Assembly: GCA_030390025.1 (NCBI GenBank)
Contig: CM059432.1
Location: forward strand, 98,892,001-98,956,000
Direction of reading: 5' to 3'
DNA from: Squalus acanthias
Taxonomy: Eukaryota
DNA: 64,000 bases
The position numbers were made by a program, and so were the translations under genes. The notes below the pieces were generated by a model. That model made no database searches, was not told the origin of the DNA, and saw nothing but the letters and a program-made list of their open reading frames with translations. Numbering within the stretch: position 1 is the stretch's first letter; the number at the start of each line of letters is the position of its first letter. This document shows positions 2,700-55,735 of this stretch, piece by piece.

Positions 2700-4624
2700 C
2701 TAGGTGAACCTTCGTGATATTAGGGCATCCTGGGCAGCAATGTAAGTGGTTGGTCTGGTGATGGGTGCCCCATCTTCATCCTCCTCCTCCTCCTCCTCCT
2801 CCTTTATGTTCTCCTCAGCTGAAGATGATTGATGAGCCCTTTCGTCCTCCTCCACCTGCAATTCTCTCTGCTGCACAATGTTGTACAGGACGCAGCACAC
2901 CACTATATTTCTGGAAACCCTCACTGGCGAGTACTGAAGGGCGCCTCCAGACCTAGCGAGGCACCTGAAGTGCATCTTCAATATTCTGGTGGCTTGCTCG
3001 ATAACACATCTGGTGGTCATGTGGCTCTGGTTGTAGCGCTCCTGCGCATCATTAGTGGAGTTCCTCACAGGTATCATCAGACAAATTTTCAAGTGGGTAT
3101 CCCTTTTCTCGTATGAGCCAGCCCTTAAGTCTGTTTCCTGGAACAAAAATGTCTGGAATGTTGGACTGCTATAGTTTGAATGCATCATGACAGCTCCCAG
3201 GCAATCTGGCATAGACCTGCATGAACCTTCTTTTGTGATTGCACATCAGCTCCGCTTGATGGATGAATATCCCTTGCGTTTGTAAAAATTCCCGGTTGCT
3301 GTGGTGGTGCTCGGATTGCCAATTTCTGTGGGAAGCCAGCCAGGGAGGTGAATGCGAGTGCCTGCTCATTCTGGCTATTGTCATCACAAGTGAAATTTAA
3401 ATAATTGCCAGCCCTGGCAAACACTCCATCAGTGACCTGCCTTCTGCATTTATGTTCAGTGGACTGCGAGACCCTCGATATGTCTCTGGTAGAACCCTGG
3501 AAGGAACCAGAGGCAAAAACATTGATGGCGGTGGTGACCTTCACAGCCACTGGTAATGCATGGTCACCAGGTCCAGCAGGTAGCAGGTCTTCTTCTAGGA
3601 GGCTGCAGATGTCTGCCACCACCTGAGGCGACGACCTCAGCATGTGGAAACACTGCTTTTCCCAGAAGTCAAGGAAGCTCAGCCTCTGTCTGTAAACCCT
3701 ATGACATGGATAGTGCCTCCTGCAACCTCGGCCCCTCTCCCCTGTGCACCTCCCTCCAGTGCACCTCCCTCCAGTACACCTCCCTCCACTGCACCTCCTT
3801 CCAGTGCACCTCTCTCAAGTGCACCTCTCTCCAGTGCACCTCCCTCCAGTGCACCTCCCTCCTGTGCATCTCCCTCCAGTGCACCTCTGTCCACTGCACC
3901 TCCCTCCAGTGCACCTCCCTCCAGTGCACCTCCCTCCACTGCACCTCTCTCCAGTGCACCTCCCTCCAGTGCACCTCCCTCCAGTGCACCTCTCTCCACT
4001 GCACCTCCCTCCAGTGCACCTCTCTCCAGTGCACCTCTCTCCAGTGCACCTCCCTCCAGTGCACCTCTCTCCACTGCACCTCTCTCCACTGCACCTCTCT
4101 CCAGTGCACCTCCCTCCAGTGCACCTCTCTCCAGTGCACCTCTCTCCAGTGCATCTTCCTCCAGTGCACCTCTCTCCAGTGCACCTCCCTCCAGCGCACC
4201 TCTCTCCAGTGCACCTCTCTCCAGTGCACCTCTCTCCAGTGCACCTCTCTCCAGTGCACCTCCCTCCAGTGCACCTCTCTCCAGTGCACCTCCCTCCAGT
4301 GCACCTCTCTCCACTGCACCTCTCTCCAGTGCACCTCTCTCCAGTGCACCTCCCTCCAGCGCACCTCTCTCCAGTGCACCTCTCTCCAGTGCACCTCCCT
4401 CCAGTGCATCTCCCTCCAGTGCATCCTCCCTCCAGTGCACCTCTCTCCAGTGCACCTCCCTCCAGTGCACCTCCCTCCAGTGCACCTCTCTCCAGTGCAC
4501 CTCCCTCCTGTGCACCTTGCTCCAGTGCACGTGCTGATCCCACCACAGCACATTGTCGCTGCCGTGGATGGTGATGGTCTTCCTCTTTTGATGCACTGTC
4601 AAACACATCCAAGGTGCCTCCCAT
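2700..4624 (-). pseudogene. Harbinger (HARBI1-like) DDE transposase, frameshifted, with N-terminal minisatellite
   Basis: VKVTTAINVFASGSFQ; VYARLPGSCHDAF; YNQSHMTTRCVIEQATRILKMHFRCL...GGALQYSP...IVVCCVLYNI; acidic tail. Probable start MGGTLD at 4624. Confidence 0.9.
3744..4530. repeat. 15-bp minisatellite (TGCACCTCYCTCCAG)n, about 52 copies
   Basis: Directly visible; one 1-bp insertion near 4426. Confidence 0.97.
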
Positions 4625-5139
4625 CCTGATCTTGTCAGTTTGAAAGCCTTCAAGGTTGAAAAAAGCTGTATCCGCACAAGAAATCTCTGCCAAACATTGC
4701 CAGAGTAAACTGAGACACAGGCTGCAATAAGTGAGCTTTTATTCAGATGAGGCAACGATAATTTGAAATACCCACCTGAACTGCGGCTTAACCTCGCCTC
4801 TGTTTCACTCATCAGTTTCCCGAGCTTGGGAAACCTGTGCTGCACACATTAAATTTAGAGCGAATTTAAAATCAATTTACAAACACTTCATTAACGTTTC
4901 CTAAGGACATTAATTGCACCAATAACTACCTGCCTGCCTGCAATAATTAAATCCCCGACTTCGGCGAGTGGGTTTCTCGCCAGCATCCAAACACGACTCT
5001 GTGGGAGCGTTAGAGTCGGGTTGCAGTCCCTATTGAGAATTCATTCATTTTAACTGCCCCCCCCCCCCCCCACCCACTGGTTCTTGGGGGTTAAAACTGC
5101 TTCATTTTTTCCTGTATCAGCTTATTATATCCTAAAGAA

Positions 5140-17371: not shown

Positions 17372-18902
17372 TGTAGAATTCGCAATTATCGCGATTTCAT
17401 TTTATTAAGGAGAAAACACAAGTTTCATTCAAAACAGCTTTTATTTCAGCGGAATGCTGTCAGGTTTAAATTGGACACAAGCAGCCTGTAAAATGGCCGC
17501 CGCACCGCGTGACAGAACATTCGAGACTTTTCGGCAGGCAGACAAGATGGCGTTCCAATAAACATTCTTGCAAGATCGATAACGATTCAGCACAGTGAAG
17601 ACATTACACAGGACATTATGGGTTTACAGTATAAACATCGATACTGGGATCGGTCTCCCAGGTACAAAGGAAAGCCATCAAGGGCCCATCCAAAGGACAT
17701 TAATATGTAAACTCCCAACGGCTCTACGATGAGAGAGCCGTTAGCAGGTAGTTATACAGGACACTTGGAAGCCCCAAACCCCTCCAGGGGGAACACCGAC
17801 CGATTTAACAATGGGAGAAGTATTAGCAGGTACTCAAACATTCAGGAGTAGCCCCGAAACCCATTAAGGACAGAGATCACCCATACAGGACATTTTTGGG
17901 CGCCAAACCGTAAACAAAAGAATGGACATTGTAGTTGGGCGGGAAACGGAAGAACTGTGCACTATAATTGCAGGCCCAAACCGTCCATTCGCTCTCTTGC
18001 TCTTGCTCTTGACTCTTGCCGCTTGCTGCTGTTATCATCGTGGCTGCTCCTGTGTTTTATCCGGTCGATTCGTAACCTCGTGGCTGCTCCTGTGTAAAAG
18101 ACTGTTGCAAGGACCTATGTTGGTAGCTGGCAGCGGAACCAAAGGCCCGAGATGAGATGAGATGAGATGAGAGGAGAAGAGAAGAAGACCTTATCCATCG
18201 CCACGGTCAGTAAATCCCGACCGCGCCTGTAGGTCGATCAGCCAAGTCTTCTTGACAACGGTGCTCCACCATACCTTGTATCCAACCAACAGAGGTCTTC
18301 ACTACAGCGGACGGTCCAGCCGACTGACCGAACAGCAAAAGCAGTAAACAAGTGGGACCAGGAGATCTCCTGACCAACACGTGGGTGCTGCGGTGAAAAA
18401 CATCCGATCAGCTATTCGGGATTTCTCCGAGTTATTACGAGTGGTGAGCATGAGTCTCGGGATCCTACGAAGCTAGTTTTAGGATAGTTATTGATAGGGG
18501 AGGGTTTAAAGATTAAGGATATTTGTAATGTGTGCCCTATTTACGTTGTGCTGGTCGTTCCTCGTTTCCCTAAGAGTGATTATAACTGTTTGTAAGATTG
18601 TACTGTCATTAATCTGTGCATATGACATGTATTTCATAATTTTAAGTATCATGCAATAAAGATTTTCCATTTCGTACCGTTCAAACCAAGTCTACATGAG
18701 TTTTATCTCCATTGCTGCTCTCGCATCTAAGTCCAGTGTCTAGAACCGTAAGGGAGAGTGATTCGAACCACTCACAGGGGTGTCTAGTGTTCCCAGACTG
18801 GCTGGAGACCAGGCCTAGACCCGCACTGACATACAGGCTGCACAGAGCCGCGTGAATCTCACAGGCTACGAGACACGCAGGGTCAGGAGAGTATCCCTTA
18901 CA
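17372..18902 (+). repeat. 5' LTR of provirus A (1531 bp)
   Basis: TGTAGAATTC...CCCTTACA; candidate TATA 17963, splice donor 18444, AATAAA 18655-18660. Confidence 0.97.
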
Positions 18903-18906
18903 GAAA

Positions 18907-20718
18907 ATGGCGACCGCGGCAGGACATTGGCAGCGAGAGGGTGGTGTGTTGGACTTTGGAATGACTGTACGAAATGTTATGCAGGAAAAGATAGCGGATT
19001 ACGTATTTGGAAAGGTTAATCTAACGAAAAAGTGGATAAGCGAACTGTTAGCGGATAAGAGCCCACTAGAGGCAGCTGAAAGGTGGACGGATAGTAAGGA
19101 ACATAAAAAGGCAGTTGAGAAAGCAGTCTGGCTTATGTGCTACAAAAGGCAGGTCCAGATTTCAAACCAGACCAATACAGCGCTAACCGCTCGAATCAAG
19201 CAGTTAGAGGAGGAAATGGAGGAGAAGGTTTCTGGAGGGGAGGTGCTCATTAAGAGTTTAAATGAGTTACGCCAGGAAAGCCAGGAAGTCTCCAGTTACC
19301 TTAAAACAAGGGTAGAGTATCTCGAGTGCCAGATCACTGAAGCAAAATTAAACGAGAATAGGATGAAGGAAAGATGTAACCGTCAAGCTGCCCAGATAAG
19401 AACTCAAGAAGAGAGCTTAATGGGGGTTAGGTCGGCGTATAAGTTGGCCCTTGAGGATAAGTTTCAGGGAGCCGACCATAGCGCCTGCGAAAAAGAGATA
19501 GAGAGCCTCAAAAGGGCCGTGAATAATGCGAACGGCATGGTGTGCCTTATTAATCCGTCGGCACGCCAGCCGCTAGTAAATGAGAGATTTAGAAATTCCC
19601 CACCAAGTAAAGCAGAAGAAGTAGTAGCCACTGCGCCCTCCGCGCCACCCAGCTATTCAGAAACCTGGGTTAGGGAGGAAGCAACGGAAGAAGCGAAAGA
19701 GCCCGTTGAAAAAGAGGTAGAAAAGGGATCGTTGTATCCAGTAACGGGGATTAAAAGGGGCCCAAGCAGAAACGGTGGGGAAGAACCGGGGGATCTCCTC
19801 GGACAGCTGGTGTTGCCTCACAGTTCACACCAGCTGAGGGCCATGATAAACCACGTAAGGAAGCTGACCGAGATAGACGACCCTTCCGTACATTTTAGGG
19901 AAGTTGAGCAAGCCGCAGCCATCAACGGCTGCGATGATGGGGAGACAGCAAAAATGCTGCTGTTCTCTTTAGATAGCTCGGTCCTTCAGTGCCTCTCAGG
20001 CGATAGCAAGAGGGGTAATAAAAGTTATGAGGAATTGAAAAATGAGGTCCTAGAAGTAGTGGGAGCGAACGACGGAGGTCCGTTTGCTAGAGTGGGACAG
20101 ACAGTGCAGATGGAGGGAGAACCCCCGAAGGTTTTTGCCGACAGGCTGTGGCCAGTATATGAGCGCAGCTGTCTAGGTGCGCCCGAGCGCGAAGATGTGG
20201 AAGGCGCCGCTTTAATTCATTGGCTTAGGTGCATAATAGCCAACAGTTTACCAGCCGTTAGAGAGCAGGCAAAAGCCTGGTTCGATCCCAATGACCTCAA
20301 CCTTACGGAAGAGTCGGTCTTGAATCGACTCACGTTAGGTTACCGTAACATAAGGGGTGTGGCAACACGTCCCTTTAAGGGAAGAGTACATGAGGTACGA
20401 CCCGCAGCCCCGGCTCAAAGAGAGTGGCATCAGGAGGGTAATCGCGCCCCACAGGCAAGTAATGCCTGTTACGGGTGTGGGAAGACAGGGCACTGGCGCA
20501 AGCACTGCAGGAACCCTTGGAAGGATTCCAAGGATAAAAATCCCGCGGTCCGAACCCAGGCGCCTGTCCCGGCTAAGGAAGCAAAGGCACCCACCTCTCC
20601 CGAAGACCTCGAAGCAGTGTTAGGAGTCATGCGCAAGATGGTTTTGAATGCGCGTGGACAGGTGGCGGTCGCAACCGGCCCCGTAGGTGCCGCAGGACCG
20701 TCTAATAGTACCCAATGA
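18907..20718 (+). CDS. gag: Gag polyprotein, intact 603 aa (coiled-coil, PSAPPSY late motif, capsid-like region, CCHC knuckle)
   Basis: Uninterrupted ORF directly after the LTR; CYGCGKTGHWRKHC; collinear homology with provirus B gag. Confidence 0.92.
   Translation: MATAAGHWQREGGVLDFGMTVRNVMQEKIADYVFGKVNLTKKWISELLADKSPLEAAERWTDSKEHKKAVEKAVWLMCYKRQVQISNQTNTALTARIKQLEEEMEEKVSGGEVLIKSLNELRQESQEVSSYLKTRVEYLECQITEAKLNENRMKERCNRQAAQIRTQEESLMGVRSAYKLALEDKFQGADHSACEKEIESLKRAVNNANGMVCLINPSARQPLVNERFRNSPPSKAEEVVATAPSAPPSYSETWVREEATEEAKEPVEKEVEKGSLYPVTGIKRGPSRNGGEEPGDLLGQLVLPHSSHQLRAMINHVRKLTEIDDPSVHFREVEQAAAINGCDDGETAKMLLFSLDSSVLQCLSGDSKRGNKSYEELKNEVLEVVGANDGGPFARVGQTVQMEGEPPKVFADRLWPVYERSCLGAPEREDVEGAALIHWLRCIIANSLPAVREQAKAWFDPNDLNLTEESVLNRLTLGYRNIRGVATRPFKGRVHEVRPAAPAQREWHQEGNRAPQASNACYGCGKTGHWRKHCRNPWKDSKDKNPAVRTQAPVPAKEAKAPTSPEDLEAVLGVMRKMVLNARGQVAVATGPVGAAGPSNSTQ
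18908..18925 (+). promoter_or_regulatory. Primer binding site, tRNA-Arg(UCG)-like
   Basis: TGGCGACCGCGGCAGGAC lies 5 nt after the LTR and is complementary to ...GUCCUGCCGCGGUCGCCA, the vertebrate tRNA-Arg(UCG) 3' end as recalled. Confidence 0.85.
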
Positions 20719-21918
20719 CTAGAGCCCACGCAGCCTGCCTACCTGTGTCCTTTTAAAAGACACGCACAGGAGGGGGTCTGCGGTGAGGAGGCCAGGTTAA
20801 AAGAGCAGGCCTTGCGGGAGGAGAACGCCCGCTTAATAAGGAAAATAGATGGGCTGGAAGGGCAGCTTAGAGAGCAGGCCCTGCGGGAGGAGAATGCCCG
20901 AGCAATGGGAAAGTTAGACGTGCTCAGGCTAGAAGGGCAGCTTAGAGAGATAAAAGCAGCCTACAGGGTAGCCAGGAGCAGGGAGTATGAGGATTTAAAA
21001 CAGGATAGAAATCTGCAGCCTCCAGCAGGTGAGATTTCACAGAAACAAGCAGGGGCGGTGGCCTGTCTTAAGGGAGGGGCCAGACCTGCGAGTGGGGAAG
21101 CACAGCCCCAGGTAGGACCACAAGGCACACAGGCAGGCGTAGCAGCTTGCATCAGGGGAAGGGACATCCCGGACGATCATGCAGCGTTTTTCTGGAGTTG
21201 GGGGTTAGATGACGAGGACCCCAGGGTACCCTGGTCAGATGAGGATAGTGCAGATGAGCATAGTGATGATGACGGGTGGTTTCACAGGAACGGTCTGGAA
21301 GGATTGGGGCCGCTAGGTAGAGATCCATACGGGGTGGACACACAAGCTGCAGGTCCCGACAGCAGGAGGAGGGAGCTAGAGGAGGCCGGGCCAGCCGCTA
21401 TGTGGTTCCCAGAGGTGTGGCCGCCCGCTGTAAACGTCCAGTCCTCAGGGGAGGCAGAGTTCGCGAGTGAAGGGCCGCCTGCTGGGCCGAGCAGGGCGGG
21501 GCCCCGAACTGCCAGCCCCGAGGTTAGGGAGGCGGAGTCAGCGGAGGCGGGGCTGGCGCCTGTGATGGAACCCCAGGTCATCCCGTTGAAGGTCTCGGGA
21601 CCCGGTCCGTCCGTCACGGAGCCCCCGCCCATAGCAGTTCCCCGTAGGTCAAGCAGAGCACCCCAGCCCAGGAAGACGTGGTCAGGTCCACAGGATGCCC
21701 CAGGGCGTAAGTTTCAGATTAAGATAACCCGGGTAGAGACAGGCCACATCGAAGCAGTAACAGGCTGCGGCAGATCAGAGGAAAGGGTCAGCGCAGCAAC
21801 AGGCTGCGGCAGATCAGAGGAAAGGGTCAGCGCAGCAACAGGCTGCGGCAGATCAGAAGGAAGGGTCAGTGCCCTCCCACCGTCGGGAAGAGCTCGCAGC
21901 AGCCTTCTCAGGATTTAA
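20719..21918 (+). CDS. Pol-slot ORF in frame with gag (probable TGA readthrough): Gag-like coiled-coil plus low-complexity Pol tail; no PR/RT/IN
   Basis: Open from the codon after the gag TGA (LEPTQPAYLCP, matching LEPAQPVYLCS in B) to TAA 21918; three 39-bp repeats near 21755-21870. Confidence 0.7.
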   Translation, partial: LEPTQPAYLCPFKRHAQEGVCGEEARLKEQALREENARLIRKIDGLEGQLREQALREENARAMGKLDVLRLEGQLREIKAAYRVARSREYEDLKQDRNLQPPAGEISQKQAGAVACLKGGARPASGEAQPQVGPQGTQAGVAACIRGRDIPDDHAAFFWSWGLDDEDPRVPWSDEDSADEHSDDDGWFHRNGLEGLGPLGRDPYGVDTQAAGPDSRRRELEEAGPAAMWFPEVWPPAVNVQSSGEAEFASEGPPAGPSRAGPRTASPEVREAESAEAGLAPVMEPQVIPLKVSGPGPSVTEPPPIAVPRRSSRAPQPRKTWSGPQDAPGRKFQIKITRVETGHIEAVTGCGRSEERVSAATGCGRSEERVSAATGCGRSEGRVSALPPSGRARSSLLRI

Positions 21919-22201
21919 AGGGGCCGCCCTGAGAACGGGCGGCATTGTAAAGTTATTAGTTTAAGGTTTTAAGTTTTAGTTTAAAGTTTTAAGTAGTTTT
22001 AATAAGTTTAAGTTTGTAGTGTTTTTAACAGATAACGACAAATGATGGGAGTTTTAAGGCTAGGTTTAGAGGAAGTCTGTTCAGCAAAAGTTGAAGTTTA
22101 CGTGAGGCGAGGTCAGGGGACCCGCTCACCCTTCACAACAGCCAGAGACTTTTTGCGAGGCTGGCTACCTCATTCTATCTGATCACAGGAACCAAGGAAG
22201 G

Positions 22202-24513
22202 ATGGAACGACTCATAGTATTGCTCGTGGCAATCGGATGTGGATTGGCCTATCGGGGCCTCACCAAGGATGTCGTGGTGTTTGGATGTTCCGGGGACACG
22301 GCCCCCATCGCGGTGGATGGGACCGGAAGACGGAAGGCAGAAGGGACCAGCACCTATTTTCACAAGGGAAGGTGGCCAGGATGGCTGGGAACGAACTCAA
22401 CGGAGTATTCCAGCACATCGGGGTTCGCCTACAAAGAGACTTCTTTAATGTGCCCCAAAGTACGGATCATCGCACCCAGGATCAGCGTCACCGTCGGCAA
22501 ACGGATTTGTTTGACTTGCAGTGGGAATGTCCCATTGAGCCGATGGTGGTGGCTGCGAAAGCTGAGCAAAACTATGAGGAACTCTTCGGTTGAGTGGGAG
22601 CGACTGGGTAATAATACCCATCGGACAATTACGGGGACTGATGGACAAGTGAAAGTCTGTTGGGACAAATGGTGGGAACCAGATGAGGGGATTTATGTTT
22701 GTATGTGGGGGTCAAAGTACGTTTGCCCCAAAGGCATCTCCATATTCTTTATTAACCAGTGGCAGGATAACGGACAGGGGATGAGGTGGGATGCGAGCAC
22801 CAGGGGGTGCGGAGCCCCATTCTCCCCGATCCCAGTGAATGCCACTGAGCTCATTACGCGCCCACGCAAAGCCCCGCCCACGATTCCGGTAGTTCTAACT
22901 GAGGAAGAAGGGTGCCCTAAAACTAGTAAGGGACCCGGGAACGGTTTGGTACTGGTCCCCACAGACCAGATACTATTTCAGGGAGTGCATTACGCGGTGG
23001 CCTCGGTGATTTTAAATCTCACTGAGGTACGGTTACCAGAGTGGTGCCCCAAAAAGACGGAACAGTTGTACCAGGTCCTGTTGACCAAGATGTTCAGGCA
23101 GTTTTACGAGTTCGATTTCGCGGAAATTGATAAGACAAGTTTATACACCGCACCGCAGGAAGTTTTGGACCAAGTAGGGAGGCAAAGAAGGGGTTTGGTG
23201 AACGATGCGTTCACTGCTTTTAACACAGGGACATCTGTGGTCAACGCTCTAGACAGTGTGGAGCTGCAGACCCAGATGAGAATAAAGTGGTAGGGTCGGG
23301 TCTGCACGAGGACCAAGCCATGACACTACACTTAAAAGAGATTATAGCAGAGCTGGAGAAACATGCGCGTACGGTAAATGCCCTGATTAGGGAAGATCGG
23401 AATGCATCCGATCAAGCTGCGCAGAACGAGGTGTGCGTGCTTTACGGGGCGTGGTTACTGGGCGAGGGCCGCAGTAATTTGGAGGATTTAAAACAAGGTT
23501 TGGTCCCGTCCTGGATAAGTAACAAACACCTGCGGGCGCTCCACCCTTTTCAGAATGCATTAAGTCCGTGCCAGCTCAGGCTAGCTTCAGAAGCTTACCC
23601 AGTCCCCGTGGACTGCGGACGTTCAAACCATACTATTATGGGAATAGTATTACGCATGCCGGTTTTGGGCAACACAGCAAAGCCCGCCCCGGTGTATCGG
23701 GTAGAGAACATTGGTGTCATTCAGGGGGGAGCCCACATTCGTTATGCAGCGGTTCCACCTTACGTCATCCGCTGGGAGCAAACGATGACAGGTACAGATC
23801 TCTCTGGTTGTCGTGGCAGGGGAGCACACATAATACTGTGCCCCCAGCACTTGAATGCCTTTTTAACACCACAGTGCGGGTTCAGAACGGCTGGCGCCAA
23901 GTCCATGAATTGCACCATGGAGGCAATGGCACAAGATCATGTGCCTCCGCAGGTAGCATACATCGGGGGTGGAACATATTGTGTTACCACTGCAGCGCAA
24001 CACTACCAGCATGGAAACCGTAGCCGGTGTCCGGTGAGTGACAGCAGTTTCTGTTTTAAACCCAGGGCTGAAGTTCAAGTAGCACAACAGCGAATTATCC
24101 CAATCCCTGAACCATCCACTGTTCATCTCACAGTAAAAGAGAATTTCACCGACTTGCAGCGATTTGTCGCACATTTTGGGTACCTCATTCCCCCTCTCCC
24201 CGAGCATTTAACCAAACTTCTGAAAGCCGTCGCGGTGTCACAAAAGCATTTTTATACCTTAGAGCAGAAAACTGTCGAGATAGGTACAGACATTTTGGAC
24301 ATAGTGGTTCCACCGTGGTGGAATCTGTTCACGAATATTGAAGTGCCCTCATGGGTCAGAATAGCCTCCCACATTTTAGTCGTCTGTCAAGTGTTTATTG
24401 TAGTATACCTTTTGTTCATACATTGTAAAAGAGACAAGCGCCTCACCAAGCATGAGAACACGGGAGAGTGGCGAGAACGTTACGTGCGCGTGCACGATGA
24501 GAGCGCAGTGTAA
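22202..24513 (+). pseudogene. env: Env: signal peptide, Ig-like domain and F-type class I fusion protein; one frameshifting deletion at about 23277
   Basis: Hydrophobic N-terminus; Ig pattern; furin site RQRR 23180-23191; heptad repeat; Cys-rich F1-like core; TM ILVVCQVFIVVYLLFI. Split into ORFs 22202-23293 and 23287-24513. Confidence 0.88.
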
Positions 24514-24930
24514 TGGGAAAATGGCGTCACTCCCGCTCGCCACGTGCGCCGCGGAAGTTTGTACTCAGTGTAAATACGTTGGAAACTCGACATGTTTAAG
24601 AGTTGGGATTTGTTTATTTTGGTGATGGTGTTGATTGTTTGGTTTTTTTTGGGTTTTGTTTTTCCTTCCCTTGAATAAAAGATAAATATACAGGTGATGC
24701 GTGAGGTATCGGCCTGGTTACGCCGGGAAGGAAAACAAGTGGTGTAAGTTTAAGGGCAAATGATGCCTACGGTGATATAAAGTGTGATTTGCTTGGGAAA
24801 TAAGGACGACACAGAGACCCTAGTGAAGTTAAAATTTTATGGGATTAATTTACTGGATTCGGAGTGAAATCGAGATAAGATTGCTCACCACTGAGTTTTT
24901 GATACGATAAGCGGAGTTATTCGCATCAAC

Positions 24931-24939
24931 AGGAGGGAC
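24931..24939 (+). promoter_or_regulatory. Polypurine tract of provirus A
   Basis: AGGAGGGAC abuts the 3' LTR; identical to 54028-54036 in B. Confidence 0.8.
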
Positions 24940-26470
24940 TGTAGAATTCGCAATTATCGCGATTTCATTTTATTAAGGAGAAAACACAAGTTTCATTCAA
25001 AACAGCTTTTATTTCAGCGGAATGCTGTCAGGTTTAAATTGGACACAAGCAGCCTGTAAAATGGCCGCCGCACCGCGTGACAGAACATTCGAGACTTTTC
25101 GGCAGGCAGACAAGATGGCGTTCCAATAAACATTCTTGCAAGATCGATAACGATTCAGCACAGTGAAGACATTACACAGGACATTATGGGTTTACAGTAT
25201 AAACATCGATACTGGGATCGGTCTCCCAGGTACAAAGGAAAGCCATCAAGGGCCCATCCAAAGGACATTAATATGTAAACTCCCAACGGCTCTACGATGA
25301 GAGAGCCGTTAGCAGGTAGTTATACAGGACACTTGGAAGCCCCAAACCCCTCCAGGGGGAACACCGACCGATTTAACAATGGGAGAAGTATTAGCAGGTA
25401 CTCAAACATTCAGGAGTAGCCCCGAAACCCATTAAGGACAGAGATCACCCATACAGGACATTTTTGGGCGCCAAACCGTAAACAAAAGAATGGACATTGT
25501 AGTTGGGCGGGAAACGGAAGAACTGTGCACTATAATTGCAGGCCCAAACCGTCCATTCGCTCTCTTGCTCTTGCTCTTGACTCTTGCCGCTTGCTGCTGT
25601 TATCATCGTGGCTGCTCCTGTGTTTTATCCGGTCGATTCGTAACCTCGTGGCTGCTCCTGTGTAAAAGACTGTTGCAAGGACCTATGTTGGTAGCTGGCA
25701 GCGGAACCAAAGGCCCGAGATGAGATGAGATGAGATGAGAGGAGAAGAGAAGAAGACCTTATCCATCGCCACGGTCAGTAAATCCCGACCGCGCCTGTAG
25801 GTCGATCAGCCAAGTCTTCTTGACAACGGTGCTCCACCATACCTTGTATCCAACCAACAGAGGTCTTCACTACAGCGGACGGTCCAGCCGACTGACCGAA
25901 CAGCAAAAGCAGTAAACAAGTGGGACCAGGAGATCTCCTGACCAACACGTGGGTGCTGCGGTGAAAAACATCCGATCAGCTATTCGGGATTTCTCCGAGT
26001 TATTACGAGTGGTGAGCATGAGTCTCGGGATCCTACGAAGCTAGTTTTAGGATAGTTATTGATAGGGGAGGGTTTAAAGATTAAGGATATTTGTAATGTG
26101 TGCCCTATTTACGTTGTGCTGGTCGTTCCTCGTTTCCCTAAGAGTGATTATAACTGTTTGTAAGATTGTACTGTCATTAATCTGTGCATATGACATGTAT
26201 TTCATAATTTTAAGTATCATGCAATAAAGATTTTCCATTTCGTACCGTTCAAACCAAGTCTACATGAGTTTTATCTCCATTGCTGCTCTCGCATCTAAGT
26301 CCAGTGTCTAGAACCGTAAGGGAGAGTGATTCGAACCACTCACAGGGGTGTCTAGTGTTCCCAGACTGGCTGGAGACCAGGCCTAGACCCGCACTGACAT
26401 ACAGGCTGCACAGAGCCGCGTGAATCTCACAGGCTACGAGACACGCAGGGTCAGGAGAGTATCCCTTACA
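24940..26470 (+). repeat. 3' LTR of provirus A (1531 bp)
   Basis: Direct repeat of 17372-18902 at offset 7568; no differences seen by eye. Confidence 0.97.
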
Positions 26471-46040: not shown

Positions 46041-46646
46041 GCCAGAAATTATACTGTGTGTCTCCCCAGCACGCCTTTGACTATTAGCAGAATGGCAGCT
46101 AGATAATCCCATTCAATAAGCAGGAAGTAATCTATATACCATGAGTAAACTTCATCAATTCTGCAACAACAGCATGTTTCATATCATCACATCTTTATGT
46201 GTTACAATTTCCACCTTTGGTAATTGCTGTTTTCTGAGAGGATAAAATGAGACTAAAATGCTGATACGGGCATCAAAGCCTGAAATATCTGCTCTTGCAA
46301 AATAAAGGGATACAGTTTTAACCGCAACACAAGAGTGAGAATATTCACAACCCTACAGCCCTCCATAATGAATATTTGTGTAGCAATAACAGGCTGTGCA
46401 CTGATACATTAAATTGTTTATGCAAGACATATTGGTTGAATTTAAAACCATAATAAAACACAATTGTGCACTTCCAGCTTTTCCTACCTAGAAACTGTGC
46501 AAGTTTTCCCTCATAAGCCTTTTTGGGGCAACATAAACTATACTGGTTTCTCTGAAAAATTAATCTGAAGGCAAAATTGTTAGGGCGATGCAGAAAGAGC
46601 AGGGGAGTGCAACTAATAGGATAGCTCTTTCAAAGAGCCGGGACAG

Positions 46647-48344
46647 TGTAAGGATTCCAAAATTTACAGATCCCCAAAACCTAAGGATAAAGGACTTTGG
46701 AACTACCTCAGAGTGATAAAAATGCATTTGGGCCTAACCTAAGGAATTTAAGACCAGAAACCAAGTTTTGGCATTATAAAAACATGTCTGGGCCTGTAAA
46801 AGGAGAAAAGGCTGTGAAGGAAGTTGGGTTCGACCTCTGTAAAAGCAGTTTTGGTTATTGCAGTTAATTGCACTGTCTGGGGACCGGGATGACCCTACTC
46901 AAGCCCCAGCAGGCATTAACATTTTGACAATAGACCCTAGGAGAAGACAGTCCCACCCAAAACAACAGGTCCCATCAAACCGATTACAGGGCCCATCAGG
47001 AAAAATGCATAATACAAATCACCCAGGACCAGGCTATAGAAAAGACTGAGTCCAGCCTAGAAACCCAAAACATGAAACCAATCACCAGTGATCAGCCAAG
47101 GAGATCGACAGGATGCAAACCATCCCAAAACCCATTTGACACTTACAGAGCAGTTTCTGGTAGCAGGCCCGCCAAATTCAGACAATGAACTGAGCAGATT
47201 TGGCGGGTAGATAAGGCCATGTTCAATGGGTGAGATTGAAGGCCTGTTAAAACCCAGTTAACGTGCTAGTAAGTCATTACCAATTTAAGAGCCCGTCAAA
47301 ACTAGACAATGAACCGAGTAGATTTGGCGGGTAGATAAGGCCACTTCAATTCTGTATAATTGAAGGCCCACCAAGCACACACGAGAGAGACAACACAGTT
47401 CAAGGTCATTGGGTCGAGCAGTCAGTCGCAACCGATGGTCATCAGAAGGAGAAGAGACCAAGAAGAAGAAGGCCCGAGCTGGAAGCGAGTCGGCATCGCT
47501 CACCACTCAGACACACCTGAGTCCAGCTCGCGAAGACACCACCTCGACGGACCTCCAACAACGGCCCCAACACAGTCACCCAGAGCAACAAGCAGCAACA
47601 AGTCACCGACGGCTCCACGAGGTCGACCGACACACAAAACAAGGCCTAAAGCCATCGCGGAAACCAAAGGCCTCACGAAACCAACAACCGCACATTACCC
47701 CCAACTGACCGGGTAATAGCAGGCCACCGCGACCAACAAAGACCAACTCCAGGGAAGAAAACCCGAAGAATCGCAAAGTTTCCACACCACAAACTACTCC
47801 TGACTTACCCCTGGGTAGGATTTTCCCCAAAGACTCTAAACCCTACTGCTAAACTAAAGAAATTGGGTACTCACCAGATAAATCCAAAACGACATCCTAC
47901 CGCATCAGCGGACTCGCGAAGACTGACCAGAGACCCAGGAGAAGTCCTCTACCGTGTACGGGGTACGGCAGACACTAATCGCCATAAACAACGAACCCCA
48001 AAACCGCGATTTAGCCCAACTGTCAAAGGATTGGTGAGCATTATCCCTGGTCCTTCAAAACCTAACTTAGCTAGTAAAGTGGGGTTGGGAGGGTTGAAGT
48101 ATTGTTCTACTGTCATTTCCCTCGCTTGTACCGAAGTGTTCCCCACCTTTAGAGTGATAAGAGTGTTATTATTTGTATCTTACCTTTTAATAAAGATTGA
48201 AGTTCTTTCATCAAACTCAGTTGTCTGCTGCACCTTTTGTATCACAACCCCCAATTAAGTCCATGGTCCAGAACCATGGGAGTGGGAGCAATTCGAACCG
48301 CTCAGAAGTCAGAGGTAAAGTTGACACAAACCACCACCCCTACA
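46647..48344 (+). repeat. 5' LTR of provirus B (1698 bp)
   Basis: TGTAAGG...CCCTACA; TATAAT 47355, donor 48034, AATAAA 48189-48194. Confidence 0.96.
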
Positions 48345-48346
48345 GA

Positions 48347-50107
48347 ATGGTGACCGCGGCAGGACCGCGGCAAAAGGGATGTGATGCAGTGGACACTGTT
48401 TTTGAAGAGAGAACCAAGATGGAGGAACGGATTTCCTCCTATGTGTTCGAAAAGGTGAACATAACTAAGAAATGGGTACTCAGTCAGCTAAGTGGATTGA
48501 GAGCAAAGACCACAGGAAATCTGTGGAAAAGATACAACTATTGGACAAACGTGTAGAGACACTCAAAGCAGAACTGCAGGATTCTGCTCAGCTGTATCAA
48601 ATAAGGGCCCTAGCAGGGGAAACATTATTGAATGAACTAACAGCCTGAGATCAGGAAAGGAGGCAGTTAGTGGAAGCACACAGGAACAGTCAAGAGTATT
48701 TTCAGTGTCAGATCACCGAAGCAAAAACCAGTGAACTAGTGTTGAGGGATGAGAACACCTGCCTTGCCAGGCAAGTAAAGGAACTAGAGGAGAGGTTAAG
48801 AGATGTCCAGGCAGCTTACAAGGTAGCAAGCACAAGGGGGTATGAAGCCGGAGAGCACGGCCCCTGCCAGAAACAAATCGAAAGTTTGAACATTGCTCTG
48901 TCTAGAGCCAAAGGCATGGTGTGCCTGTTAAGCCCGGGTACGGCCCGGGTGGACCTGGAAGTGCAAGTGGAAACTGTTCGGACGCCACCTGTGGCGCCGG
49001 GGAATGACCCGGTTGGGCAGCAGGAGGGAAGGGCGATTTGTGAGGCTGGCAGGGAGTGCACACCACCACCTGTGGCGCCAGGTTTTAACTCGGTTTGGCA
49101 GCAGGCAGGGGTGGGCAAACCAATGCAGGAAAGGTTGGAGCCGGGGCCAATGTGCCCGGTTCCGGCAGCAAAAGTTTGGCCCACCTGGGGGTGGTGGGGG
49201 TCAAGGACCCCTTGAAAGCCAATTTGTGGCTCCCCACGGTACCCAACAGCTTAGGGCTATGATAAGTCACCTGGGTAAGCTCACTCAAGAAGGGGACCCC
49301 TCAGTCCACTTCATGGAAGTGGAACAGGCAGCGGGCATCAACGACTGTGATGATGCCGAGATGGCAAAAATGCTCCTGTTCTCCCTAGACAGTAAAATCT
49401 ACCAGTCCCTCTCCGCAGAGAGTAAAAGAGGGCAGGGTGGATATGCTGCCATCCGAGAGGGAGTTCTGGAGGCCATGGGAATGAACGATGGTAGTCCCTT
49501 CTCCTGGGTGGAGAAGACTACACAGCTAGTAGGGGAGACCCCACACGCTTTCGCAGACCGACTGTGGCCTGTGTACAGGAGTGCCTGTAATGGGGTTCTC
49601 GACCGGGATCGCCTGAATCAGGACGAGCTGGCCCACTGGCTCCGAAGCCTAGTGGCAAACAGCTTGCCACGGATCAGGGCCAAGGCTGAGCTGTGGTTTG
49701 ACCCGAAAGACCCCCGGGTCACCGAGGAGACAGTGGTCAGACAACTGACCCTGGCTTACCGGAACGGTAGAGGGACAGAAGAGCACCCACCTAAGGGAAA
49801 GGTACACGAAATAAGGCCTGGTAAAAGGAAAGAGTGGCACCAGGAAGGGGGTAACCCTTCTGACACGAAGCGTATCTGTTTTGGGTGCGGGAAGAGTGGA
49901 CATTGGAGAAAAGACTGTAGGAACCCGTGGAAGGGTAACCTAGGAAAGAATTCCCCAGCCCCTGCCCCAAAGGTATAAACCCCGACCTCTCCCCACACGT
50001 TAGATTCGGTCGTGGCTGCGATCCGAGCTCTAGTAAACGGCCCAGGGAGAGTAGCCACCGCCACTGGTGCTCTAAACCCATCTGCCCCCCCTAACACAGA
50101 CTTATGA
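48347..50107 (+). pseudogene. gag: gag (frameshifts, premature stops)
   Basis: YVFEKVNITKKW, DPSVHFMEVEQAAGINDCDD, FADRLWPVY, CFGCGKSGHWRKDC; the ancestral stop is TGA 50105-50107. Confidence 0.9.
48348..48365 (+). promoter_or_regulatory. Primer binding site (tRNA-Arg-like)
   Basis: TGGTGACCGCGGCAGGAC, one C>T change from the PBS of A. Confidence 0.82.
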
Positions 50108-51205
50108 CTAGAACCAGCGCAGCCTGTCTACCTGTGTTCCCCGGAATACGATGGTAAGATGGGGGTGGAGACGGTGCAGGGGAGACATTTGGTGGACACC
50201 GGAGCTTCCAGCATGGTGGTCCATTCGGAAGACCCGACCAATTCACCCAGGTCTAACCAGGTCCCATTTCGCCTAATGGGGTTCACAGGGAACGAGCAGG
50301 CTGGGGCAATGTCCAAACCTTTGGACATAGATTTAGGATCCCTTCATACCACGTGAGAGGGTAACCAGAAGACCGACAAGTTGGCCAAGCAGGGGGCCAG
50401 GGAAGGAGAGTTCTGGGATCCCTATAAAGCTTTGCCCCCGGACTTAAAGCAGGTCCAAGCCCAGGATCCCGTCCTTAAGGCCATCCTGGTAAAGAGAGAG
50501 AATGGGGAGTCCATAGAAGGTCCGTTCAGGGCAGCGGACGAGATTTTAAAACAGATTCACTGGCAAGCAGCCAGTAACCTGGGGAGCCAACACCAGAAAA
50601 ATCGTCTGCTGTTAGAACCTCAGAGAACCCACGAGTGGGAGATTAACCAATGCAAGCTGTTTAAACCCGAGAAAAGGGAACAGTCAGCAAAGGTGGACCA
50701 CCCCAAAGTTAGAAATCCCCAGCCAGCAGCTGTGGCAGACGCACAGGCTGCAGCGGTGGGGACAGTGGCTTGTATCACAGGAGGGTACACTCCACCGATT
50801 ATGTGGGACTCAGGCACACCCCCAGTGGCCAGAGTCCTGAGAAGGTCTCCTCGCACACCACAGCCTAAACTGCCGTGGTCACCGATACATCAATGGGTCA
50901 GCCCAAAAGGGGCTGCAACCCAAAAAGGAGTGCCCAAGGCCAGGGAGCGTTCAAAGGTTAGGGATCCCCAGCCTGCAGCCTCAGGCTGCAAGGAACCCAC
51001 AGGACAGGACAGGTACTCAGCAGCCACACCAAAGGGGGCAGTGTGCTGTAGCACAGGAGGGGACACTCCCGGGATTGTCAGGGATTCAGGGAAACCCTCA
51101 GTTGTTTTAAGAAGGACTCTCAGGGTCCTGCGGTACAGGCCACCTTACACCCAGGCGTACAGGCTGCTCAGAAGCTGCCCAAGAGAGAGGCCATACAGGG
51201 ATTGA
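50108..51205 (+). pseudogene. pol: Internally deleted pol: protease N-terminal half, RNase H end, integrase-flanking pieces, tail
   Basis: HLVDTGAS; EGNQKTDKLAKQGA; DLKQVQAQDP. All in the gag frame, with a single TGA at 50354. Confidence 0.8.
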
Positions 51206-51418
51206 CCTGGCTGTCCGGAGACGGGCGGCGAATGTACAGAGTTTTAGTAATTTTAGGTGTTTAACAGTTTGGTAGTTTTAGGATTTTTAAGGATTCTAGT
51301 TTTAAGGATTTTAGTAAATAAGCTTAAAAGATCTCAAGAATTGATCACCTGTCCAGCCTGAGAACCTTCTCGGGACATGGTTGTCTGTTTTGTGTGTCCC
51401 TACAGAGAGGAAATCGGC

Positions 51419-53747
51419 ATGACCAGGGTTCTGCTCCTGCTCGCCCTGGTAGGGGTGAGCATCGGTGACCGAGGTGACGTGGAGGACTCCCACATCTATG
51501 AGTGCTCGGGAGAGAGAGCACCGGTCGTCACCGCAGGGGGTGGCGAACGGGGAGTGGAGGAGCTCGCCATCTACTTCCACGAGGGAAGGTGGCCAGGGTG
51601 GCTGGGGTACACCTCCACAAAATACTCCAGCCAGACCGGGTTCACGTACGGGAAGGCCTCCCTCCCATGCCCCAGAGTACAGGTCGTTGCCACAAGGGTC
51701 AGTGTCACCGAGGGGAAGCGTGTGTGCCTTACCTGTAAGGGACGAATTCCCCTGAATAGGTGGTGGTGGCTCAGGAAGCTGAGCAGAGATGCAGGGGACC
51801 ATACAGCCGACTGGGAACGACTAGGGAACGACACCTACCGGACAATCACAGGGACCCATGGGGGAGTGAGTGTGTGTTGGGATAAGTGGTGGGAGTCGGA
51901 ACAGGGAGTCTATGTTTGTATGTGGGGGTCAGAGAAAGGCTGCCCCACAGGCATATCCATCATCTTCTCCAGGCAATGGCAAGATGCCAGGGAGGGGATG
52001 GGGTGGGATTCTAGCCTACATGTGTGCGCGCTCCCACACTCCCCGACCCCAGTCAACGCCACCGAACTAGTAGCCCGCCCCCGAAAGCCCCTGCCCGCGA
52101 CCACGACCTCACGGACAGTAGAGGAGAGGTGTCCTACCACCACCAAGGGACCAGAGAATGGACTAGTCATAGTACCGACCGAAAAGGTACTGTACCAGGG
52201 GGTACACTATGCAGTAGCTTCAGTAATATTAACACTTACCTAAATGGTGTCCTAAGGAGACAGAACAGCTATACCAGGCCCTGCTAAAGGAAATGTTTAG
52301 AAAATTTTATGAATTCGATTTTGCCAACGTGGACAAAGCAGAACCGAACAGATTACACCCTGAGCGCACCATGGGCGCAGGGAGACAAAGAAGGGGGACC
52401 TGGAACAATATTTTCACAACATATAATACAGGATCCTCAGTAATAAATAGCCTAGATGACATAGAGCTACAAACACAGATAAATGGTTTAAAAACCCAGT
52501 TGAGGAAGATCCTAACGGATGGGAACACAGTGGTAGGCTCAGAGCTACACGAGGACCAAGCTATGATGGTCCATCTAAAAGAGATTATTGCTGAGCTAGA
52601 GAGACATGCTAAAACAGTGAATGCACTCATACGGGAGTTCAGGAATGCTTTGGATCAGGCTGCACAGAATGAGGTGTGTGTGCTATATGGGGCATGGTTG
52701 CTGGGCGAGGGCCGCAACAACCTGGAGGATTTAAGACAAGATTTAGTCCCCTCCTGGATTAGCAACAAACACCTCGCAGCCCTCCACCCATTCAGCAATT
52801 CACTGAGCCCGTGTCAGCTCCGCCTAGCCTCTGAAGCCTACCCAGTCCCAGTAGATTGTGGACGTTCCAATCACTCTATCATGGGGATAGTAGTGAAGAT
52901 ACCGGTCATGGGTGGGACAGCCCGTCCCACACCGGTATACAGGGTGGAGAACATTGGGATCATTCAAGGGGGTGCACACGTCCGTTTCGCAGAGGTCCCA
53001 CCTTATGTCATAAAGTGGGAGCACGCTATGACAGGTACTGACCTCTCCGGGTACCGGAGCCGGGGTTCACACATAATATTGTGTCCCCAGCACTTGAACG
53101 CCTACTCTAAACCACAGTGCGGGTTTAAAGCTGCTGGCGCATGACCTATCAACTGTACCATGGAGGTAATGGCACAAGGCCATGTTCCCCCACAGGTAGC
53201 ATTCATAGGGGGTGGGACATATTGTGTCACCACAAGTGTGCCCCACTACCAGCATGGACAGCATTTCTGGTGTCCGGTAAGTGACAGCAGTTTCTGCTTT
53301 AAACCCGAGGCAGAAGTTCACGTGGCCCAGGAACGGATTGTCCCCATTCCTGAACCCTCAACTGTTCACCTAACTGTAAGGGAAAACATTACCAACCTGC
53401 AAAACTATGTCACCTTCTTCGGCTATAAAATTCCTCCTCTACCCGAACACCTTACCGTCTTACTAAAAGATGTACAGGCATCACAAAAGCATTTCTACAC
53501 CCTAGAACAAAAGACACTCGAGATAGGGGCTGAGATTTCGGCCATCACGGTTCCACCCTGGTGGGACATTTTTGAAAATGTAGAGGTTCCTTCTTGGATT
53601 AGGATGGCCTCACACATCTTAGTGGTTTGCCAGCTCGGGATAGTCTTGTACTTACTGTGTACAAAGTGCAAGGGGAAGGACAGAATGCTCCATTCCCGAC
53701 ATGAGAAAGCCTGGGAAAAACATTACAATAAAGTTTACCAAGTATAA
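51419..53747 (+). pseudogene. env: env (Ig-like domain plus F-type fusion protein), frameshift at about 52240 and stop at 53142
   Basis: Collinear with env of A: signal MTRVLLLLALVG, RQRR, TM HILVVCQLGIVLYLLC. Confidence 0.88.
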
Positions 53748-54036
53748 AACAAGCCTGAATCAATTCTAAAAATAAAGAAGTTTTGTGATCGTGTATTATT
53801 TTTACTATGTATGCACTGTGTCTTCCAAGTGGTGCAGGGGTGTTGGACCCACTCCGTGCTTGGATATGAATGTAATTGAATTCTTACCTGTATGTATTGG
53901 AATACTACACCAAAAAGGGGAATGTATGTTTTTGGGTTTTAGTCTAGGTAATAGAGGGGAAGGTTGGGTTTCGAGGATCAGGAATTTTGTCCTCCCAGGA
54001 CGATACTGTAGTGAATTAAAGTATCGCAGGAGGGAC

Positions 54037-55735
54037 TGTAAGGTTTCCAAAATTTACAGATCCCCAAAACCTAAGGATAAATGACTTTGGAACTACCTCA
54101 GAGTGATAAAAATGCATTTGGGCCTAACCTAAGGAATTTAAGACCAGAAACCAAGTTTTGGAATTATAAAAACATGTCTGGGCCTGTAAAGGGAGAAAAG
54201 ACTGTGAAGGAAGTTGGGTTCGACCTCTGTAAAAGCAGTTTTTGTTATTACAGTTAATTGCACTGTCTTGGGACCGGGATGACCCTACTCAAGCCCCAGC
54301 AAGCATTAACATTTTGACAATAGACCCTAGGAGAAGACAGTCCCACCCAAAACAACAGGTCCCATCAAACCGATTACAAGTCCCATCAGGAAACATGCAT
54401 AATACAAATCACCCAGGACCAGGCTATAGAAAATACTGAGTCCAGCCTAGAAACCCAAAACACGAAACCAATCACCAGTGATCAGCCAAGGAGATCGACA
54501 GGATGCAAACCATCCCAAAACCCATTTGACACTTACAGAGCAGTTTCTGGTAGCAGGCCCGCCAAATTCAGACAATGAACTGAGCAGATTTGGCGGGTAG
54601 ATAAGGCCATGTTCAATGGATGAGATTGAAGGCCTGTTAAAACCCAGTTAACGTGCTAGTAAGTCGTTACCGATTTAAGAGCCCGTCAAAACTAGACAAT
54701 GAACCGAGTAGATTTGGCGGGTAGATAAGGCCACTTCAATTCTGTATAATTGAAGGCCCACCAAGCACACACGAGAGAGACAACACAGTTCAAGGTCGTT
54801 GGGTCGAGCAGTCAGTCGCAACCGGTGGTCATCAGAAGGAGAAGAGACCAAGAAGAAGAAGGCCCGAGCTGGAAGCGAGTCGGCATCGCTCACCACTCAG
54901 ACACACCTGAGTCCAGCTCGCGAAGACACCACCTCGACAGACCTCCAACAATGGCCCCAACACGGTCACCCAGAGCAACAAGCAGCAACAAGTCACCGAC
55001 GGCTCCACGAGGTCGACCGGCACACAAAACAAGGCCTAAAGCCATCGCGGAAACCAAAGGCCTCACGAAACCAACAACCGCGCATTACCCCCATCTGACG
55101 GGGTAATAGCAGGCCACCGCAACCAACAAAGACCAACTCCAGGGAAGAAAACCTGAAGAATCGCAAAGTTTCCACACTACAAACTATTCCTGACTTACCC
55201 CTGGGTAAGATTTTCCCCAAAGACTCTAAGCCCTACTGCTAAACTAAAGAAATTGGGTACTCACCAGATAAATCCAAAACGACATCCTACCGCATCAGCG
55301 GACTCGCGAAGACTGACCAGCAACCCAGGAGAAGTCCTCTACCGCGTACGGGGTACGGCAGACACTAACCGCCATAAACAGCGAACCCCAAAACCGCGAT
55401 TTAGCCCAACTGTCAAAGGATTGGTGAGCATTATCCCTGGTGATTCAAAACCTAGCTTAGCTAGTAAAGTGGGGTTGGGAGGGGTGAAGTATTGTTCTAC
55501 TGTCATTTCCCTCGCTTGTACCGAAGTGTTCCCCACCTTTACAGTGCTAAGAGTGTTATTATTTATGTCTTACCTTTTAATAAAGATTGAAGTTCTTTCA
55601 TCAAACTCAGTTGTCTGCTGCACCTTTTGTATCACAACCCCCAAATAAGTCCAAGGTCTAGAACCAAGGGAGTGAGAGCGATTCGAACCGCTCAGAGGTC
55701 ATAGGTAAAGCTGACACAAACCACCACCCCCTACA
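54037..55735 (+). repeat. 3' LTR of provirus B (1699 bp)
   Basis: Direct repeat of 46647-48344 with about 55 differences counted by eye; preceded by PPT AGGAGGGAC. Confidence 0.96.

Follow-up and report, generated by a model that had tools for sequence, protein, structure and literature searches.

Helper-dependent endogenous retroviruses that keep a fusion frame are known from the mouse IAP family, where one deletion is involved. The closest functional precedent for the element described here would be, by analogy, mouse IAP 1-delta-1, which in the accessible text of the reports on it is a highly successful non-autonomous internal deletion with an open fusion of Gag to a Pol remnant that acts in cis, with a helper acting in trans (PMC6466679, PMC7411935). 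As far as the same text goes, part of gag and pol was deleted there to give a direct fusion, and env is absent. Mouse VL30 and ETn, mobilised by MLV or MusD, are also helper-dependent in the accessible part of this literature (PMC6466679). In zebrafish, BHIKHARI Bik-1 and Bik-2 are non-autonomous relatives of lokiretroviruses with an intact Gag that carries an N-terminal coiled coil; Bik-2 has gag only, with no pol and no env, and the accessible text of that preprint describes no patched readthrough frame (bioRxiv 10.1101/2024.03.25.586437).

Here we describe element A, found in a 64,000-nucleotide stretch of Squalus acanthias DNA (the window) set in a 3.7-Gb genome. Like IAP 1-delta-1, as far as that is described in the accessible reports, it is non-autonomous and, judging from shared tails and gags, probably helper-dependent, and it keeps an open fusion frame across copies (63/70 copies; 10/10 length classes). 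Unlike IAP 1-delta-1, it has gag and env whole in most copies, needs readthrough of a stop, has lost four enzymes and has the gap filled with a piece of a foreign Gag. It shares this probable helper dependence with VL30 and ETn, and an intact Gag with an N-terminal coiled coil with Bik-1 and Bik-2. VL30 and ETn are largely non-coding, whereas element A keeps a coding gag and, in most copies, a coding env. In the A family of about 1,000 copies the intermediates are preserved step by step, the donor can be identified and a helper coexists, and a second satellite lineage, element B, kept the frame without the coil; why defective retroelements go on translating their pol slot thereby becomes testable by population genetics and simple reporters. 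A literature search, outside which lay most subscription papers, bioRxiv supplements and Repbase/Dfam, found no paper on this element.

Layout and integrity of element A

Element A occupies window positions 17372-26470. The order of its coding parts is gag, TGA CTAG, a 399-codon frame (20719-21918, here called X) and env, with the following features:

17372-18902, forward strand: 5' LTR, TG...CA, identical to the 3' LTR
18907-20718, forward strand: gag, with N-terminal coiled coil, capsid, CCHC knuckle and TGA end; conserved Met at 18979
18908-18925, forward strand: primer-binding-site-like 18-mer, overlapping the first in-frame ATG
20716-20722, forward strand: gag stop in UGA-CUAG context, a predicted readthrough site, common to helper, B and C elements
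22202-24513, forward strand: env, with putative signal peptide, RQRR site and putative C-terminal membrane helix; F-glycoprotein-like by language-model features
24940-26470, forward strand: 3' LTR of 1,531 bp, identical to the 5' LTR

The paired 1,531-bp LTRs show no difference, and there is a 4-bp target-site duplication, GAGG. Contigs spanned the junction between gag stop and insert in 4/4 public runs examined, so the arrangement is not an assembly artefact. X gave no Pfam enzyme match and element A has no protease, RT, RNase H or integrase; in an alignment to a helper-type copy, the match breaks off at pol codon 11 and resumes in the post-integrase tail. The env of the window copy is interrupted by a frameshifting deletion, and most sampled copies have one long frame there.

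Some minor features of the window may be mentioned at this point. The 18-mer presumably matches tRNA-Arg. Immediately 3' of the LTR (window 18903-18925) the first in-frame gag ATG overlaps the primer-binding site, and the Met at 18979, common to gag in all three lineages (A, B and C), comes 24 codons after that ATG. The N-terminal part of Env (window 22463-22702) has a weak Ig_3 match, under the cut-off (E = 0.17). Window 3606-4848 is a tandem array (15-bp period) in which long frames open up on either strand.

Parts of frame X and origin of its coil

X was resolved into these parts:

20719-20751, forward strand: X residues 1-11, kept pol start, matching the pol start of enzyme-bearing relatives
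20755-21000, forward strand: X residues 13-94, coiled coil of lineage-C Gag, internally deleted and later duplicated
20803-20949, forward strand: tandem duplication in the coil, 23-codon period, second unit longer by 2 codons; 1-3 units among copies
21001-21081, forward strand: X residues 95-121, linker, by sequence comparison like a unit of the B-type post-integrase tail
21082-21918, forward strand: X residues 122-399, native disordered post-integrase tail of A-family Pol, up to the natural stop
21643-21681, forward strand: R-R-S-x-R-x-P-x-P-x-x-x-W motif, conserved at the protein level in lineages A, B and C
21760-21876, forward strand: 13-codon repeats near the end of the tail, variable in copy number

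The initial annotation had read this stretch as the pol slot of a provirus: a 399-codon frame without stops, with 11 residues of the original pol start, an internally duplicated Gag coiled coil closer to the Gag of B than to A's own, and a remainder matching the post-integrase tail of B. The frame was borne out, since all 399 codons of X are free of stops and in the same frame as gag behind TGA CTAG, and X residues 1-11 indeed match the pol start of enzyme-bearing relatives. The duplication of the coil was confirmed as well, with a 23-codon period and two more codons in the second unit. The likeness of the remainder to the tail of B is real and distant (about 25-45% at the amino-acid level, in local pieces), and its source is A's own pol tail: the C-terminal 70% of X is the helper's tail of about 280 aa, which, in the best of 12 helper-type copies, is 88% identical in DNA over 855 nt. 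The idea of a recombinant new frame yielding a Gag-X fusion of about 1000 aa holds in that X is recombinant and kept, and the product is predicted if the TGA is read through; it does not hold in that X is not mostly new, about 70% of it being helper Pol tail.

Modelled as a single sequence with AlphaFold2, X shows one helix at residues 20-97, with pLDDT mostly >90, and is disordered elsewhere. Among 85 copies, the coil has one unit in 7, two in 77 and three in 1, and the extra two codons are present in 73/77 two-unit copies, which gives a 25-residue period. Such a period is a tolerated stutter in coiled coils. In place of the linker at X residues 95-121, other copies have the final residues of the helper integrase, and in some copies the coil is joined straight to the final residues of an integrase. 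The R, S, P, Q, P and W columns of the tail motif are invariant or nearly so in 61 copies. It is written with other codons in B and C; within lineage A its codons are nearly invariant at the DNA level too, and a cis-acting RNA element could contribute. We take the motif to resemble nucleosome-binding arginine-anchor motifs such as the CENP-C motif, with spacing off by one; a literature search on this likeness found nothing. In one subfamily (loci L250, L252, L262/L288 and L287) the frame does not end at the usual stop and reaches 519-559 codons. X used as a protein query gave no match among 8,000 candidates of 219-699 aa, a range that leaves fused forms outside its scope.

A stem-loop behind the gag stop, a candidate readthrough signal, was also considered. 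A crude shuffle gave z = -2.6, and the rebuilt stem-loop gave z of -0.3 to -2.1 with dinucleotide shuffles and inconsistent folds (17 insert types of 42); for 8 helper-type copies the range was +1.1 to -1.3. The stem-loop is not supported.

Regarding the donor, local alignment of X residues 13-94 scored 54 with A's own Gag, 76 with the Gag of B and 154-162 with three Gags of a third lineage, C. The coil is nearer to B than to A's Gag, as was proposed; however, B as its donor is rejected, as the score of C is about double that of B and the window's B has no DNA match to the insert. Among 1000 register-preserving shuffles, with means of 33-39, the score was reached 2 times for A Gag, never for B Gag (0/1000) and never for each C Gag (0/1000), which shows homology and not generic coiled-coil bias, the refuting explanation that the initial annotation had put forward. 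The B counterpart is homologous to the insert:

48718-48850, forward strand: Gag coiled coil of element B, homologous to the insert, not its donor

At the DNA level the window insert is 78-81% identical to lineage C. One older copy carries a longer C-Gag piece, 89% identical to C over 226 nt and 98% over 55 nt, and 10/47 parsed loci retain such a piece, through the end of the N-terminal domain into the start of the capsid; these older forms were found by a search with a single-unit copy, in which 3/50 loci were unparsed. Alignment to Gag variants, proposed in the initial annotation as a way to find the donor, did find it (89% over 226 nt), and by sequence comparison the coil insert derives from the Gag of lineage C. 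Sampled lineage-C copies are mostly decayed. A pattern for donors in which a DH motif follows the coil, and two exclusion patterns for the insert on B- or C-type gags, gave 0 matches each.

LTR pairs of copies with the longer piece (6 of 9 seen) are 96-99% identical, and those of most two-unit copies 99-100%. The forms found imply a series of capture, internal deletions, loss of about 46 codons, linker swaps for the helper integrase end, the 23-codon duplication and the 2-codon gain, with the order read from LTR identity and common features rather than a rooted tree. When old and young copies are compared, pS is 0.03-0.19 in the insert and 0.31-0.46 in their gags; the insert has thus passed between gag backgrounds. 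The backgrounds sampled are all A-type, 72-99% identical, and none is B or C. The best gag match was A-type (72-81%) in 45/47 parsed loci, of the others one having no match and one no upstream DNA.

The probable helper and satellite element B

Exact matches to two insert-junction patterns numbered 901 and 953, both lower bounds. These matches, with the identical LTRs and target-site duplication of the window copy, denote multiple independent recent insertions, and element A, present in at least 900 copies, would be a helper-dependent satellite with env. An intact integrase-end pattern had 1,093 exact matches; all of the copies fetched with this motif (12/12) have full pol spacing, and 6/12 are open from the gag stop to the end of the tail, about 1,500 aa. 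Above Pfam cut-offs, this helper has RVT_1, two RNase H domains (RT_RNaseH_2 at 470-558 and RNase_H at 650-793, each over the cut-off) and rve; the protease match is weaker. The helper, which coexists with element A in the genome, has gag, env and cis sequences in common with it. Full-length gag matches of helper type have 84-98% DNA identity to A's gag, and the missing enzymes would be supplied by this helper in co-assembled particles.

We found that tails are exchanged between insert copies and helpers, judging from sequence identity: with 32 helper tails as reference, the median identity of 60 insert-copy tails to their nearest counterpart is 98.5%, 43/60 have a helper counterpart at >=97%, and labels change 19 times on the tail tree (an untested FastTree). 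Since the tails are interleaved with those of helpers, the open tail and its kept motif are in part inherited and do not count as independent evidence. In 8 helper copies piN/piS is 0.12 for RT against 1.10 for the post-integrase tail, of which the frame and one motif are kept. Because the helper tail starts near a string resembling the sequences at other Pol domain borders, it may be released by cleavage as a fast-evolving protein of its own. When 30 copies were sampled by the tail end, 21 run into integrase and 9 are pol-less, and all of the latter are of the insert type (9/9, one interrupted); this sample is blind to deletions lying more than 1.5 kb upstream.

By its traits, and not by placement on an RT tree, the helper is lokiretrovirus-like. 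It shares with lokiretroviruses, in the accessible text of their description, a tether plus a second RNase H and a coiled-coil Gag N-terminus (PMC7947760), and language-model features make its Env a candidate for their F-like type. Its best named Pol matches are NYNRIN-like, from frogs and coelacanth, at 43-45% identity; for the RT-RNase H region 4/16 matches are named NYNRIN-like. We take NYNRIN to be the same as CGIN1. PDB scores for its RT are alike for Ty3, MLV and foamy RT. Env had no Pfam or PDB sequence match; its first match in the ESM Atlas was a Fusion_gly cluster (score 0.93, 205/256 features), and its AlphaFold model is of unusably low confidence (pLDDT 31). The Env cleavage site, RQRR, is furin-type and not a literal RXKR, and hydrophobic segments lie at the N- and C-terminal sides. 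The accessible text of the founding paper reports lokiretroviruses in 0/6 chondrichthyan genomes, places their 'smc' coiled coil ahead of gag (smc-gag-pol, in one sequence header) and not in the pol slot, and has 0 mentions of readthrough in the main text (PMC7947760). The insert of element A, which lies behind the gag stop and comes from Gag itself, is not an ORF of this 'smc' type. If the helper is a lokiretrovirus, the clade would extend to cartilaginous fish with Squalus acanthias, a group in which the founding paper counted none.

Element B (window 46640-55500) belongs to a second large pol-deleted, env-bearing family, with 3,980 first-look candidates:

50108-51205, forward strand: pol slot of element B, an independent pol-deleted frame without Gag insert, with one internal stop in this copy

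In B-type elements the multiply deleted pol-slot frame is open and the motif is kept, with no coil, in loci picked partly for long frames. This would argue that the coil is not required for a satellite lifestyle. Scraps of the RNase H end and integrase in B are 78-88% identical to the lineage-C Pol piece in most of 8 B-type loci and 68% in two, against 47-64% to those of A; B is thus closer to lineage-C Pol and also a mosaic.

Selection on frame X and readings of its role

For the analysis of selection we took an unbiased sample of 70 copies in genomic order, retrieved with a pattern of the stop and first 11 codons only (drawn from the first 100 listed, skipping some already sampled or tandem). 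In 63/70 the frame of X is open up to its natural end, and in 54/70 the last 500 gag codons are open; the seven breaks in X all differ from each other. In similarity-biased sets X is open in 28/30 and 139/150 (the latter counted by eye). Stops and frameshifts in other A copies, which had been named as a refutation, are therefore not what the 63/70 open copies show. Shared length classes are in frame in 10/10 cases for X and 4/12 for the adjacent spacer (Fisher p = 0.0017), where the anchors missed 4, 6, 13 and 17 of the 70 copies and one ambiguous anchor was dropped. Counted by hand, about 11 junction or indel events are peculiar to the insert lineage, and every one of them keeps the frame. 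Junctions that arise when templates are switched from one coding sequence to another may be biased towards staying in frame. The absence of shared stops within the insert taken by itself does not reach significance (2.6 expected, P = 0.08).

The residues behave differently. In the unbiased set piN/piS is 0.42 (0.35-0.50) for gag, 1.16 (0.93-1.45) for the X tail (61 insert copies) and 0.74 (0.41-1.36) for the coil, as pairwise counting estimates that ignore phylogeny and recombination, with repeat-unit bounds about 2 codons off the true 23-codon period. A value of 0.35 (0.17-0.76) for the coil of 49 single-unit copies comes from a set retrieved by protein similarity to the coil, so piN is lowered by construction. 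The shared-allele ratio of the first unit is 0.44 (0.22-0.83) in 125 copies, old-versus-young insert pairs have pN about equal to pS, and one core position of unit 2 is L, S, A or E. The frame of X, then, looks to be under selection and its residues mostly do not; of the check on frame and dN/dS suggested in the initial annotation, the first half came out in favour of constraint (63/70 open) and the second showed no clear constraint (tail 1.16, coil 0.74).

Our leading explanation, to which we would give slightly less than an even chance, is that element A is a pol-less, env-bearing satellite, that X is a patched pol slot and that occasional readthrough Gag-X favours the copying of its own RNA in cis. 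The UGA-CUAG gag stop would be occasionally read through to yield a Gag-X of about 980-1,000 aa; this context permits readthrough in the accessible text of one preprint (bioRxiv 10.1101/2021.04.18.440353), and we infer readthrough from it and from the helper having no other evident route to Pol. Gag-X would join particles via its ordinary Gag part and likely benefit copying of its own RNA, a cis effect proposed on the likeness to the report on the IAP 1-delta-1 Gag-Pol fusion. Selection would keep translation going from the gag stop to the tail, together with the short basic-Pro-Trp motif, and the coil would mainly be an in-frame spacer of variable length. Gag-X is a predicted product, and an effect of the protein and one on RNA stability would fit the data alike.

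A tenable though less probable explanation is that the act of translation alone matters: nonsense-mediated decay of the RNA would be prevented by ribosomes reading through the pol slot, with no role for the Gag-X protein. A block of this decay by readthrough is reported for Moloney MLV reporters, in the accessible text of the source (PMC4917968), and would lend this explanation a precedent. It would account for a frame kept while residues drift (tail 1.10 in 8 helper-type and 1.16 in 61 insert copies, coil 0.74) and for a slot whose content is interchangeable (long, short, with 1-3 units, with an integrase end, or a B-type frame). However, more than 3 kb of env and LTR would still be untranslated past the stop of X, and it leaves unexplained both the protein-level conservation of the motif in three lineages and why one insert lineage makes up 9/9 pol-less copies in the tail-anchored sample.

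Two explanations give the coil itself a function. In the first, which we hold to be unlikely, the captured lineage-C coil would be a mimic of Pol, the readthrough Gag-coil-tail product oligomerising in helper particles and, bearing the motif, giving the satellite an edge; the cassette would have crossed waves of helpers with gags differing by up to 28%. The second, more doubtful still, corresponds to the adaptor for co-assembly suggested at the outset: the coil would be a working oligomerisation module that binds helper Gag/Gag-Pol or itself and improves recruitment of helper enzymes. The continuous helix predicted for residues 20-97, the survival of the coil when the remainder of the captured Gag stretch was lost, its later duplication, the register-restoring gain of 2 codons in 73/77 two-unit copies and the ratios of 0.35 (0.17-0.76) for single units and 0.44 (0.22-0.83) for the first unit would be in agreement with it. 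Nevertheless, 0.35 comes from the set chosen by coil similarity and the unbiased ratio is 0.74 with an interval spanning 1, pN is about equal to pS in old-versus-young pairs, and the core position of unit 2 accepts L, S, A or E. Moreover, most sampled copies of lineage C, the source of the coil, are decayed, and B-type satellites were amplified without a coil. Gag-X already bears a near-identical Gag, 87-98% identical in DNA to the helper's, so that an adaptor is not needed. With a coil of 1-3 units and no clear amino-acid constraint in the unbiased sample, an adaptor role has at best the modest support of the coil's retention, duplication and codon gain.

It is improbable that the open frame is a neutral by-product, that is, that a recombinant in a young family happened to be in frame and was renewed by exchange with helpers, and the data already disfavour this. 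Many copies are indeed very young (LTRs 99-100% identical), tails are exchanged with helpers and amino-acid selection on X is weak or absent. Yet the insert, which has no helper counterpart, took about 11 events in frame, the older forms (LTRs about 96-99%) are already open, and the neighbouring spacer freely accepts out-of-frame lengths.

Lastly, Gag-derived restriction factors are known, and a foreign coil fused to Gag could upset the lattice. The initial annotation had also offered a dominant-negative; one that poisons helper assembly and is retained by the host is, however, very improbable, as the element is not a single fixed locus: its copies, at least 900, are dispersed and still being amplified, and they need the helper. 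The helpers are about as numerous and young, a joint expansion to about 1,000 young copies each.
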